Shown piece after piece: positions 5,306 to 53,348 of a stretch of 64,000 bases of DNA. The number at the start of each line of letters is the position of its first letter. The stretch's first letter is position 1. Made by a program: the position numbers and the translations under genes. Source of the DNA: a virus (Duplodnaviria > Heunggongvirae > Uroviricota > Caudoviricetes); IMG/VR virus record IMGVR_UViG_3300037484_000445, positions 323,863-387,862 of that record. One strand, written 5' to 3'. The notes beneath the pieces were generated by a model. That model saw only the letters and a program-made list of their open reading frames with translations. It was not told where the DNA came from and did not search any database.

Positions 5306-5571
5306 CCAATGAAAGGGAGATGATCGCTTCAAAGCACCCTAGTAGCTTGCAGGTGTAACCCCTGCCTACCATCAGGCAAAAGGGAATTCCTGGTCGATTC
5401 GAACGGCCGCGATTGACCTCTGACGGTTGAAGTTCTTACGACAGCACCCTACGAAGGTGTTGAGTTACTAGCGTGCCTTGAGGTGGTCATCACGAAGATA
5501 ATCGCTTCAAAGCACCCAATCGATAGAGGTTCGAGCCCTCCGGGCTTATTCCCAACACGAATTTGAAGGCC

Positions 5572-5607
5572 GTCATCCTATGAACCGAGTCCTTTAGCTC
5601 TTCTCAC
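5572..5607 (+). CRISPR. Solo copy of the IscB array repeat
   Basis: GTCATCCTATGAACCGAGTCCTTTAGCTCTTCTCAC, 34/36 identical to the array consensus (crRNA sense on +). Confidence 0.9.
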
Positions 5608-43419: not shown

Positions 43420-43665
43420 CTACGAACCTTTGATCTCCTCAACGGATACCGGCGAACCCAATAGGGTTTCACCGCCTATCACAAACCGCTTGTCGGCAAA
43501 TAGATTGGACGCCGCCTCGTAGGCTATGTCGTTAACACTCTCGCCCTGGTTGACCTCAACCTCAAGAACGACCTGTGCCTTGCTCCCAACACGCTTACCT
43601 GAAAAGGCTAGGAATATATTGTAGGTGACTCGGTACCTCATAGGCATGTGATTATTCTCGATCAC
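43420..43665 (-). CDS. Hypothetical protein coupled to iscB
   Basis: GTG start overlaps the iscB TGA. Confidence 0.65.
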   Translation of the reverse strand: MIENNHMPMRYRVTYNIFLAFSGKRVGSKAQVVLEVEVNQGESVNDIAYEAASNLFADKRFVIGGETLLGSPVSVEEIKGS

Positions 43666-45089
43666 AAGTGGACTTCGTACCCACTAGTTCGCTCAACCAA
43701 GGTGAGCTTTCGAAACGTAATGTTGCGATCCTTGTCGGACCCAAAAACCCGGACTTGCATAGAACCCGAGGCCCTAGCCCCAACGACCCTAGCTAGAACA
43801 CCATCGGGAAGTCGAACAATGTCTCCCGTAGAGAAACCATGAGGCCGTTTGCCTAGCTCACCCCTCGACTTCTCAAGCTCACCCTTGGGATAGACTATCT
43901 CGGGCTTTCGTTGCCCTAAGCGTCCAGGGTCACGATAAAACATATGGCGTTTTCTCGGATGGCCTGGGCCAAGTTTGGCCTTAGGGAACCCGTAAGCATC
44001 GGTTTTCACCAGCTTGTGACTGCCACGCCCAATGCTCTTGATGAACAAGATCGGAATGTTCCAATACCGAATACGATCAACCTCACCCACGCAAAGGGCA
44101 TCATAGGCATGACCCTTAGGCACTCCTAGTCGCGTTCGATTCCACTTCGTTCTACCTCCGGTGCCTACAGCAACTTCAACTCCAAAGGTCTTCAGGAGAT
44201 CCCTCAAAGCCCAACGAGTCGAGTTCACAGCAGCGGCGTCCTTCAATGGAGCCTTCATCTGTGCCTTAATTCGGGCTAGGACTTTTGGCTTACCCTTGAG
44301 GAACTCCTCCAAAGGTCGATTGCTCTTCCTCAGATTACAGGGCCTGCAGGCTGTACATAAGTTGCTTACACGATCGCTGCCACCGCGGGACCTAGCCTCG
44401 ATGTGATCTAGCTCCAGAGGTACATCCTTGGCTTCACAATAGGCACACTTGTGTCCCCATTTTAGCAAGACATACTCACGCACTTCATAGCCGAACAAAG
44501 TGCCCTGTTGATACTCAACGCCTTGGATTTCAGCGTTCTCCAACTTTTGAAGGTCGAAGCGTACAAGCTCTTGCACTATGCGTGTAACAGGCACCAACTT
44601 ACTGAGACGTCTAACCCACGTCACGACGTTCTCGAGACGATTCCGAATGCTCGGTGCAAGCCAACCTTCTGGTTTGGCCCTGTGCTTGAACCTTCCACCA
44701 GGGCACTTCTCACGCTGCTTTTGATTACTAGATAGGTTCAACGGCGTCTTTCGCCGAAGACCTCCACAACGGTATCTCAAGTTGGCCGAACGGCGACGTC
44801 GGCGACACGCCGAGCGACTTTTCAGGTTGTCCCTTACCCTAGAACCCTTGTGCTCGATTTCAGCCAGGTATACGGGACGATCGTTGGCGACAACAGCCAC
44901 ACCCGTGTACTTCGATCCCGGATCCAATTTCAAGTCAAGCGGCTGCGTATGCTCTGATGTGAGCTTCTTGAGACGTATCGTGAAAGGCATACGCTTGACT
45001 ACTACGGCTTCACCACTCCGTAGAAGCTTGCGTGCCTTCTGGGGCTTGGCCGGCATCAAAGGCCTGCCTTTATAGTCTAAGCAAAACAC
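43662..45089 (-). CDS. iscB: IscB RNA-guided endonuclease (OMEGA family), CRISPR-associated
   Basis: PLMP domain (VFCLDYKGRPLMP), RuvC-I LKLDPGSKYTG, Arg-rich bridge helix RRRRRSANLRYR, GWLAPS, RuvC-II IVQELVRFD, HNH CAYC...LDHIEARSRGG...N...CN, RuvC-III GHAYDA, C-terminal GFSTGDIV. Canonical start would be GTG at 45089; an alternative in-frame ATG lies at 45470. Confidence 0.97.
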   Translation of the reverse strand: MFCLDYKGRPLMPAKPQKARKLLRSGEAVVVKRMPFTIRLKKLTSEHTQPLDLKLDPGSKYTGVAVVANDRPVYLAEIEHKGSRVRDNLKSRSACRRRRRSANLRYRCGGLRRKTPLNLSSNQKQREKCPGGRFKHRAKPEGWLAPSIRNRLENVVTWVRRLSKLVPVTRIVQELVRFDLQKLENAEIQGVEYQQGTLFGYEVREYVLLKWGHKCAYCEAKDVPLELDHIEARSRGGSDRVSNLCTACRPCNLRKSNRPLEEFLKGKPKVLARIKAQMKAPLKDAAAVNSTRWALRDLLKTFGVEVAVGTGGRTKWNRTRLGVPKGHAYDALCVGEVDRIRYWNIPILFIKSIGRGSHKLVKTDAYGFPKAKLGPGHPRKRHMFYRDPGRLGQRKPEIVYPKGELEKSRGELGKRPHGFSTGDIVRLPDGVLARVVGARASGSMQVRVFGSDKDRNITFRKLTLVERTSGYEVHL

Positions 45090-45096
45090 CCGGTGA

Positions 45097-45470
45097 GGGT
45101 GCCGTGGAGTTTCCTCTACGGCACCCTTCGGGTTTCCCCTGAGATTATCAGGGCAGCCTTGCGGCTGTGACGACGTATCAGGTAGCTGCCCAGTTACGTC
45201 ACCTCTAGGAATTGTATCAGAATGACCTTCAGGACTTGCGTCCGTCTGCTCCGCCCCGTTTCGGGATTGTTGTCTGCTGACAGAGCTTCGAGAGCCCGGA
45301 ACTGAGGAAGCATTCCGGGGTCTTATTGATATCGTTTCTGAGCACGCTTCACGTGGGGACTTGCTCGTACCACGTGATATCCTTGGACACCCTGTTAACG
45401 GATTTTTAGGTCCGTCTGAACCGAATCCTTTAGCTCTTCTCACCTCTCGCAAAGGCGTGTCCGTCTTCAT
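45097..45470 (-). ncRNA. omegaRNA-like scaffold with 5' anti-repeat (tracr-omega RNA)
   Basis: HEARO/omega-type motif CCCCGGAATGCTTCCTCAGTTCCGGGCTCT (45320-45291), CAATTCCTAGAGG, several hairpins (TCACGTGG/CCACGTGA, CAGCC-GCAA-GGCTG, GGGTGCCGT/ACGGCACCC), directly upstream of iscB. Ends are approximate. Confidence 0.85.
45417..45443 (-). ncRNA. Anti-repeat (tracrRNA-like)
   Basis: GTGAGAAGAGCTAAAGGATTCGGTTCA pairs with 27 nt of the minus-strand repeat (one G:U against the consensus). Confidence 0.92.
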
Positions 45471-45482
45471 CTGCAGTCCTTC

Positions 45483-45488
45483 TACACC
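45483..45488 (-). promoter_or_regulatory. Class II motif for the tracr-omega/iscB transcript
   Basis: GGTGTA 12 nt before the in-frame ATG at 45470. Confidence 0.6.
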
Positions 45489-45595
45489 GATCGTGACGTC
45501 ATCCGACAAACTATTTTCAGGTTCGAGAGTTTTATCGAGACCCCCTCGCAAACCTGATTGAATACCGTTGGAATCATTGGGGTCCTGAAGGGAGG

Positions 45596-46271
45596 GTGAG
45601 AAGAGCTAAAGGACTCGGTTCATAAGGTGACGCCGTCCTAATCGAGTTACTCACCAGGGACAAGGCGTGAGAAGAGCTAAAGGACTCGGTTCATAAGGTG
45701 ACACTCGTCCTCGTCGAGACCCCAGTCCTCCTCCTCGTTGTGAGAAGAGCTAAAGGACTCGGTTCATAAGGTGACTGGCCGTTCCGTTGTGATAGATCCA
45801 TTGGTAGATAGGTGAGAAGAGCTAAAGGACTCGGTTCATAAGGTGACTACTCAGTCTCAGTCTGACCCTTGAGGATGGCAGTAGGTGAGGAGAGCTAAAG
45901 GATTCGGTTCATAAGGTGACGGGGCACGACCTATAGCGTGTACTGGTAGGGGTGTGAGGGGAGCTAAAGGACTCGGTTCATAAGGTGACTCGTGCTTCGT
46001 GATCTCCCCGATTGGCGAAGAAGGGTGAGAAGAGCTAAAGGATTCGGTTCATAGGATGACGACCAACCAACGCTGTCATGGCTATCGTGTTGGCAGTGAG
46101 AAGAGCTAAAGGGTCCGGTTCATAAGATGACTGCTCAGTGTCACCACTGTTCTGGCAAGTTTGAGGTGAGAAAAGCTAAAGGATTCGGTTCATAAGGTGA
46201 CGAGTCTCCGACCACTGCGGTTCCAGCTCTTGTAGGTGAGAAGAGCTAAAGGACTCGATTCGTAAGGTGAC
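45596..46271 (-). CRISPR. CRISPR array, 10 repeats / 9 spacers
   Basis: 36-nt repeats start at 45596, 45667, 45740, 45812, 45885, 45954, 46025, 46096, 46166 and 46236; minus-strand consensus GTCACCTTATGAACCGAGTCCTTTAGCTCTTCTCAC; unique spacers of 33-37 nt. Strand inferred from the anti-repeat and promoter. Confidence 0.98.
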
Positions 46272-46300
46272 TGGGTACTGCAACATCTGATGGACTCGAC

Positions 46301-46789
46301 TCATAGGGTGGCCGGGCGAGAGAGCTCAGCCAACTTCCTATACACCGAGAGGTCACCGAAATACCTCGGAGGATACCCGCCCTCCAAAGTACTCCCCACC
46401 AAACCCCGCTCAATCAACCGCCTAAGCGCTTCCTTTACCTCGGCTTCCCGTTGCCCCCTCTCCAGGTCCTCGGCCGCGAATTGGGCCTCTATGGCCTCGC
46501 AATAGCCCTTGTCCTCGTAGTTGTCGTTAGGCGGTTGAATCCGCTCCAAGTACACCCGGTTCGTCCCGTACCAGTCCTCAGCCAAACCCTCCTCCCCCAC
46601 AGGACTCACCAGAACCTGGCCCAATACCCACCGGTCTACCTCGTCAGCAAGTATCCCACGGTCCTTCACCTCTGCCGCCATCACTTCGCCCAACACCCTG
46701 CGGACGTAGCCGATCTCTACGTCCGGACACATCGAATGAGGATTCTCAACCTTGCTCCAAATCAGCTTCAAAATGTCAGGTACTTGCAT
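46301..46789 (-). CDS. Hypothetical protein, possible C-terminal winged helix
   Basis: 162 aa; EVKEALRRLIERGLV. Confidence 0.7.
   Translation of the reverse strand: MQVPDILKLIWSKVENPHSMCPDVEIGYVRRVLGEVMAAEVKDRGILADEVDRWVLGQVLVSPVGEEGLAEDWYGTNRVYLERIQPPNDNYEDKGYCEAIEAQFAAEDLERGQREAEVKEALRRLIERGLVGSTLEGGYPPRYFGDLSVYRKLAELSRPATL
46341..46346 (-). promoter_or_regulatory. Class II motif upstream of the array
   Basis: TCGGTGTATA about 70 nt before the first minus-strand repeat, inside the upstream ORF's 3' end. Confidence 0.55.
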
Positions 46790-53312: not shown

Positions 53313-53348
53313 GTGAGGAGAGCTAAAGGATTCGATTCATAAAGTGAC
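53313..53348 (-). CRISPR. Solo copy of the IscB array repeat
   Basis: Plus strand GTGAGGAGAGCTAAAGGATTCGATTCATAAAGTGAC, 32/36 identical to consensus, in an intergenic region. Confidence 0.88.

Follow-up and report, generated by a model that had tools for sequence, protein, structure and literature searches.

The 64,000-nt stretch of DNA analysed here, referred to as the window, covers positions 323,863 to 387,862 of the IMG/VR virus record IMGVR_UViG_3300037484_000445 (Caudoviricetes). Its minus strand carries a compact cassette (43642-46339, minus; 2,698 nt) in which a gene for the RNA-guided nuclease IscB is preceded by a CRISPR (clustered, regularly interspaced, short palindromic repeat) array. 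This locus is best explained, with a probability of roughly 0.8, as a working CRISPR-associated IscB (CasIscB) cassette of a huge phage. The CRISPR-associated IscB kind has been known since 2021 and has been tested biochemically, and the locus described here is a well-preserved further example of it. A promoter-like motif, an array of ten repeats, a second motif, an anti-repeat fused to an omegaRNA-like scaffold, and iscB follow one another on the minus strand; this order was proposed in an initial annotation made from the letters of the DNA, and both the order, which can be read directly, and the coordinates given there are accurate.

By its sequence and predicted fold, the protein is an IscB and not a Cas9, and it has no recognition (REC) lobe. 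The gene iscB (43662-45089, minus) encodes 476 amino acids (aa) counted from a GTG codon at 45089, and is identified by Pfam, by sequence matches in the PDB, and by its fold. The Pfam profile RRXRR is matched over its entire length (8.5e-62, profile positions 1-174 of 174) and HNH is matched with 9.3e-11. The PLMP motif (direct read), RuvC-I, bridge helix, RuvC-II, HNH, and RuvC-III can all be located. Among solved structures, TbaIscB is the best sequence match (2.2e-41) and OgeuIscB also matches (8.8e-33), both collinear through RuvC-III, whereas sequence matches to type II-D Cas9 are limited to the HNH/RuvC part. In an alignment of 35 sequences, the catalytic positions D57, E175, H230, N253, H328, and D331 show either no variation or at least 90% conservation, and their places correspond to those of the catalytic motifs in solved IscBs. 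The RuvC and HNH catalytic motifs claimed in the initial annotation are thus confirmed by Pfam, PDB collinearity, and conserved columns. An AlphaFold2 model with a predicted local distance difference test (pLDDT) value of 79.8 retrieves IscB structures first in Foldseek (3.8e-28 to 1.3e-21, template modelling (TM) score ~0.53), including OgeuIscB at 3.8e-28 and TbaIscB at 3.0e-21, whereas type II-D Cas9 is matched far more weakly (8.3e-14, TM 0.37/0.27). The label "proto-Cas9", used in the initial annotation, holds only as a family resemblance, and the protein itself is IscB by sequence and fold. Nor does the locus belong to type II CRISPR-Cas, given that the 476 aa contain no REC domain and that the genome encodes no Cas1, Cas2, or Cas4.

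The C-terminal part of the protein (approximately residues 340-476) is beta-rich; IscBs carry the domain that interacts with the target-adjacent motif (TAM) in their C-terminal part. The linker between the bridge helix and RuvC-II has a length of ~45 aa, with residues 104-137 at pLDDT below 50, and the DNA encoding it contains a strain-variable segment (44664-44796, minus) that is replaced by 94 other nt in metagenome contigs of the runs X1 and X2. According to PMC13180657, the REC insertion site lies between the RF..R and L(A/T)PS motifs, and variants of both are readable in this IscB when it is compared with the descriptions in that paper. Two distant homologues of 590 aa, P0207 and P0212, have an insertion of ~130 aa between the bridge helix and RuvC-II, and their N-terminal motifs resemble those of the CasIscB protein DelIscB. 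These two may be REC-bearing intermediates.

The relatives of this IscB share the arrangement of its locus. The protein (P0001) forms a clade with P0003-P0014 that has a Shimodaira-Hasegawa-like approximate likelihood ratio test (SH-aLRT) value of 100 and stands on a long branch apart from 107 ordinary IscBs. Identity to the closest proteins ranges from 92% down to 42%, and the closest relative, at 92%, is encoded at locus L006. In all seven clade loci with upstream DNA, an array lies just upstream of iscB on the same strand, and the layout of array, anti-repeat, scaffold, and iscB is common to all seven. The repeats number 10 at this locus, at least 2 in L006, 7 each in L003 and L020, 4 each in L005 and L007, and 3 in L008. 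No array is present at the outgroup loci L022, which has the setting of a bacterial chromosome, and L023. Two relatives are found on contigs of 448,843 and 442,082 bp. On another related phage contig, a transfer RNA (tRNA) gene (L009:1924-1995, 67.6 bits) starts in the last 10 nt of the called iscB, which ends at 1933.

The array itself (45596-46271, minus) is composed, by direct read, of ten 36-nt repeats and nine spacers, and extends from repeat R1 (46271-46236) to R10 (45631-45596). The spacers are 33-37 nt long, each of them is unique, and the repeats are spaced 69-73 nt from start to start. The four repeats nearest iscB are identical to the consensus, while the six distal repeats have 2-4 changes each; such distal degeneracy is seen in three of the clade loci.

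The anti-repeat (45417-45443, minus) occupies 27 nt at the 5' part of an RNA that resembles a trans-activating CRISPR RNA (tracrRNA), and it is complementary to repeat nt 10-36. The complementarity extends to 26 of the 27 positions, the remaining one being a G-U wobble, and cofolding of repeat and anti-repeat gives a 27-bp duplex at -55.7 kcal/mol with a small hairpin directly after it. The same pairing is present throughout the clade: in 7/7 loci the anti-repeat is complementary to the local repeat and lies 152-169 nt past the last repeat, the cofold duplexes comprise 26-30 bp, and the distance from the anti-repeat to iscB is 327-357 nt in the six loci measured. The repeats of L003 and L008 are very unlike the repeat of this locus, yet their anti-repeats match locally, which is covariation of the two partners.

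Downstream of the anti-repeat, the omegaRNA-like scaffold (approximately 45093-45416, minus) begins with a nexus-like hairpin and continues in a conserved multi-stem body, as delineated by covariation and weak similarity to HEARO, the omegaRNA family of Rfam. The RNAalifold consensus for the stretch from anti-repeat to iscB in the seven loci contains 94 pairs, 39 of which have compensatory changes. In the covariation control, both sides change in 42 of 92 pairs and the fraction of paired cells is 93%, compared with 4-10 both-side pairs and 35-45% paired cells when the structures are slid by 1-3 columns, and with no more than 26 both-side pairs in shuffles. HEARO matches this scaffold at a sub-threshold 25.9 bits; matches at the homologous place in five loci reach 23.6-28.5 bits and three span the full model, but the gathering score of 83 for family membership is not attained in any of the five. 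A structured omegaRNA is thus found just upstream of iscB on the same strand, on the grounds of covariation and recurring weak HEARO matches, and these argue that the scaffold is a divergent omegaRNA, to which the array contributes the guide-proximal strand in trans. The genome contains one copy of the scaffold and one of iscB. The initial annotation had proposed a dual-RNA, multi-guide IscB used by a large phage, and the comparative evidence favours this proposal through the covariation of the anti-repeat in seven loci, the compensatory pairs of the scaffold, and the phage hallmark genes described below.

A leader-like stretch of 152 nt (45444-45595, minus), defined by an alignment of six loci, connects the last repeat with the anti-repeat. 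It contains an invariant TTGCGAG (45545-45551, minus) ~45 nt past the last repeat, aligned in the homologous parts of five loci, and a GGTGTA motif (45483-45488, minus), seen by direct read and in the alignment of six loci. A conserved ATG (45468-45470, minus) stands 12 nt past this GGTGTA in the alignment. The other GGTGTA motif of the cassette, which is promoter-like (46341-46346, minus; direct read), is located 69 nt upstream of R1, at the upstream cassette edge. A same-strand GGTGTA is present 33-75 nt upstream of the first repeat in 5/6 loci with upstream DNA, and 13-61 nt upstream of the anti-repeat in 7/7 loci. The genome contains YGGTGTA 231 times against 110 expected, an enrichment of about two-fold. 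Scans for sigma-70 promoters and intrinsic terminators yield nothing that exceeds shuffles. A second TTGCGAG copy, TTTGCGAGAG, lies directly before the anti-repeat, and the TTGCGAG pair could be a leader signal, a processing signal, or a trace of array origin.

These components suggest a course of action for the cassette. The array would be transcribed on the minus strand, presumably from the first GGTGTA motif, and the tracr-like omegaRNA would be made from the stretch just upstream of iscB, presumably from the second motif and probably as one transcript with iscB. In each repeat, the 27 nt at the 3' end would pair with the anti-repeat at the 5' part of this long RNA, after which a host RNase III-type activity and trimming would produce CRISPR RNAs (crRNAs) with the 3' part of each spacer as the guide. 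The 476-aa IscB would bind the pair of crRNA and tracr-omegaRNA, by analogy with DelIscB, for which cleavage with array guides has been demonstrated. By the same analogy, it would employ its RuvC and HNH sites to cut matching double-stranded DNA beside a presumed TAM. For the phage, the most likely use of the cassette lies in conflict with the host or with other mobile DNA, which would be the presumptive targets. New spacers are apparently added to the array at its iscB-proximal end.

Contigs from wetland and sediment metagenomes provide strain data for comparison with the locus. The X1 and X6 contigs have the same repeats bordered by other spacers. One run contains a 25-kb contig with the same flanks, in which the spacers are fewer and different toward the iscB side, and another run contains several short contigs with the same repeat beside different spacers. 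The proximal spacer of L006 is unlike any spacer of this array. Taken together with the degenerate distal repeats, the spacers of the strains and of L006 indicate turnover at the iscB-proximal array end. The cassette as a whole varies as well: in a contig of run X2, 43641 and 46340 are separated by 29 other nt, and the contig thus represents a relative without exactly the ~2.7-kb cassette, which bounds the coordinates given above. Similarity by tblastx to L003, L005, L007, and L008 is confined to the cassette, with non-homologous neighbours, and only L006 is syntenic beyond it. The cassette-free allele and the similarity that ends at the cassette edges indicate that the cassette is gained, lost, or moved as a unit.

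A rival reading takes the cassette to be mainly a selfish RNA-guided homing element. Its guides would cut cassette-free relatives during co-infection and repair would copy the cassette in, so that the array would give several homing or maintenance sites; a defence role would be compatible with this. Transposon-borne IscB and TnpB keep and spread their elements by such homing. The relative that lacks exactly the 2,698-nt cassette and the occurrence of the cassette among non-homologous neighbours in L003, L005, L007, and L008 agree with such an element. On the other hand, no spacer matches this genome, the cassette flanks, or the compared related loci, and the genome has no TnpA. Moreover, even close strains differ in their spacers, a pattern more in keeping with immunity-like use than with a small set of fixed homing sites. 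Homing is thus an unlikely explanation, although the best of the rivals, and a cassette that works as a CasIscB system accounts better for the variable spacers.

The window also contains repeats outside the array. Solo repeat 1 (5572-5607, plus) matches the repeat at 34/36 positions inside a 1-kb intergenic stretch ~40 kb from the array, and solo repeat 2 (53313-53348, minus) matches at 32/36 positions in an intergenic stretch ~7 kb from it. Both are kept in strain contigs, solo repeat 2 in contigs from the runs X1 and X4. The strain variant L019 is without the 134 nt directly upstream of solo repeat 1, and strains therefore differ in the sequence at the "guide" position. A solo half-repeat, of the same type as the local repeat, is also present in L005, ~430 nt past iscB. 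The one metagenome contig that matches the repeat core turned out to carry a strain variant of solo repeat 1. Two copies of the motif ATCGCTTCAAAGCACCC, ~180 nt apart, precede solo repeat 1 (window 5310-5530, plus), and a sequence similar to it adjoins a repeat in a contig of run X2.

A further rival makes the cassette chiefly a regulator rather than a cutter, in which IscB with crRNAs or solo-repeat RNAs would bind partial matches and silence phage or host genes. Some Cas9 and Cas12 systems silence genes with natural short guides. A regulatory use would suit the position of the two solo repeats in long intergenic stretches, their maintenance between strains, and the half-repeat of L005, which matches that locus's own repeat version. 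However, the catalytic residues are all intact, the spacers are full length, and the guide-position sequences beside the solo repeats have no above-chance match in the genome. Silencing as the function of the cassette is accordingly regarded as very unlikely, and the CasIscB reading, with an active nuclease, is retained.

The genome that contains the window is a single contig of 451,925 bp with a CheckV completeness of 94%. It encodes TerL (phrog_2, 8.2e-20) and a portal protein (phrog_16240, 3.8e-24), and a weak HK97 capsid match is present. With a size above 200 kb and with packaging and head genes on one contig, it is the genome of a huge phage. A related contig of 448,843 bp, in the same size class as this phage, is filed as a single contig in the bacterial metagenome-assembled genome GCA_040961665.1. 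The possibility that the locus is host chromosome or a mis-binned piece whose array is owned by a neighbouring host Cas operon, which the initial annotation had named as a refuting outcome, can be dismissed as highly improbable, with no evidence found in its favour, because the DNA belongs to an IMG/VR virus record with TerL, portal, the weak HK97 capsid match, and a block of tRNA and transfer-messenger RNA (tmRNA) genes, no cas genes occur anywhere in the 452 kb, and 185,579 species genomes lack the repeat core. The block in question comprises 48 tRNA genes and the tmRNA gene (tag ANDNSIADRLVA) at G000:C1:7573-27433, outside the window. Most of the large open reading frames scanned in the 107-180-kb region have no match in PHROG.

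Some observations weigh against a working CasIscB cassette. The first is that no protospacer has been found for any spacer in the phage's own genome, IMG/VR, GTDB, cultured phages, or plasmids. The nine spacers and the flanks of the solo repeats match the 452-kb genome at chance level only, the best spacer match being S9 over 22 nt with 2 mismatches (E 0.033 per query). The 3' 23-mers of S4, S6, S7, S8, and S9 have no exact match in IMG/VR, and that of S9 has none in the GTDB species genomes. The whole array yields no target among cultured phages or among plasmids. The spacers of relatives and of metagenome variants do not match this genome or the compared related loci. A spacer search against viral and host databases, as suggested in the initial annotation, has thus found no target.

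The second is that there are no adaptation genes, and that a host array with this repeat was not found. Cas1, Cas2, and Cas4 are absent across the whole 452-kb genome, as are Y1 TnpA and an IS200/IS605 setting; the lack of these genes, at first noted for the window, thus holds for the entire phage. Many IscBs are non-autonomous, and the absent TnpA does not therefore exclude the IscB family. A weak Cas1 match (13.7 bits) turned out to be an ADP-ribosylglycohydrolase, and no phage RNase III was found with PF14622. The repeat core has no match in IMG/VR or in the 185,579 species genomes of GTDB, and no host array able to lend an adaptation machine has consequently been identified.

The third is that the start codon of iscB is uncertain. 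The iscB frame runs without a stop through the whole scaffold in 6/7 loci (window 45470-45090, minus; L003 and L005-L009), with 111-171 open codons, compared with 2-16 stops in the other two frames. Compensating 1-nt indels in the scaffold restore the iscB frame. L005, L007, L008, and L009 encode the usual N-terminal valine by GTT, a codon that does not start translation. Judged from these sequences, translation of IscB may begin at a leaderless AUG and run through the scaffold. Substitutions in the scaffold are equally frequent at the three codon positions, and the peptide itself is thus not conserved.

A more far-reaching version of the CasIscB reading combines several of these features, and is put forward as a tentative and rather doubtful proposal. 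In this version, the array of this lineage would have its spacers renewed at the end next to the scaffold, downstream in transcription, with neither a Cas1-Cas2 of the phage's own nor a detectable host array with this repeat, which would imply a novel acquisition route or a foreign adaptation machine. An extended iscB frame would begin at a leaderless AUG 12 nt past the promoter motif and take in the scaffold DNA as its 5' part, and the solo repeats would be dispersed single-guide units or docking sites of the cassette. If the scaffold does lie inside an extended iscB frame, one DNA stretch would serve both as guide scaffold and as translated leader.

CasIscB systems stand between the guide RNAs of transposons and the crRNA/tracrRNA pair of Cas9. 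The clade offers seven natural versions in which repeat and anti-repeat have changed in step; it comes with a full phage genome for context, and its population data show spacer change as well as gain or loss of the cassette. This opens to testing how a single omegaRNA was split into two RNAs, how arrays grow without Cas1-Cas2, and whether phages are a vehicle from selfish nuclease to immunity. In addition, the sequence points to a further compact nuclease candidate of ~476 aa with a defined guide architecture that is open to assay.

Among known systems, the CasIscBs are the nearest. The description of the OMEGA systems already included CRISPR-associated IscB (Altae-Tran et al. 2021, cited by PMC12660989). 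DelIscB has 457 aa, a TAM of NAC, and a 16-nt guide, and cuts DNA with an RNA that contains repeat and anti-repeat (PMC12660989). The CasIscB panel consists of DelIscB, which is CasIscB-2/3, together with CasIscB-1 and CasIscB-4 (PMC13180657, supplementary table 1, sheet 2); the metagenomes behind CasIscB-1 to -3, viral or viral-fraction, were from Chesapeake and Delaware Bay, and TbaIscB is counted among the CasIscBs and as the founding member of the Cas9 lineage (PMC13180657). The present locus resembles CasIscB in its small IscB without REC lobe (457 aa in DelIscB, 476 aa here) and in its upstream non-coding region with repeats and spacers, an anti-repeat, and an omega-like scaffold. The two defining features, a regular array beside iscB and a scaffold anti-repeat that pairs with the repeat, are both found. 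It is not the same protein as DelIscB, given that an 18-residue DelIscB fingerprint occurs in 0/269 homologues examined, and the DelIscB repeat has no match in IMG/VR. In contrast to the panel, this locus belongs to a phage genome of 452 kb that is nearly complete, and its array, with 10 repeats, is longer; additional features here are the solo repeats elsewhere, the conserved phage promoter-like motif, and the iscB frame that is open through the scaffold. A literature search that did not cover Altae-Tran 2021 and Al-Shayeb 2022 found no report on IscB-CRISPR in huge phages.

OgeuIscB (PDB 7UTN/7XHT/8CSZ) has the same fold and domain order as the present protein. Similar to transposon-borne IscB (HEARO RF02033), the scaffold lies directly upstream of iscB on the same strand and is weakly homologous to HEARO. 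In contrast to the single omegaRNA of transposon-borne IscB, the guide comes from a separate array through the 27-bp repeat:anti-repeat duplex and is not fused to the scaffold, and TnpA and an IS200/IS605 setting are absent. TbaIscB is closest in sequence among the solved structures; unlike in the comparison group of TbaIscB and type II-D Cas9, the model of the present protein shows no REC-like domain and only the low-confidence linker of ~45 aa.

The cassette also resembles the CRISPR-Cas systems of huge phages without adaptation genes (CasPhi and others) and the TnpB/TranC-CRISPR intermediates of phages (bioRxiv 10.64898/2026.03.27.714800), all of which combine a compact single effector and a short array with the absence of Cas1/Cas2. 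A presumed role in mobile-element conflicts is common to them. The effector of this locus, on the contrary, comes from the IscB/Cas9 branch and not from TnpB/Cas12, and a long tracr-omegaRNA is needed.

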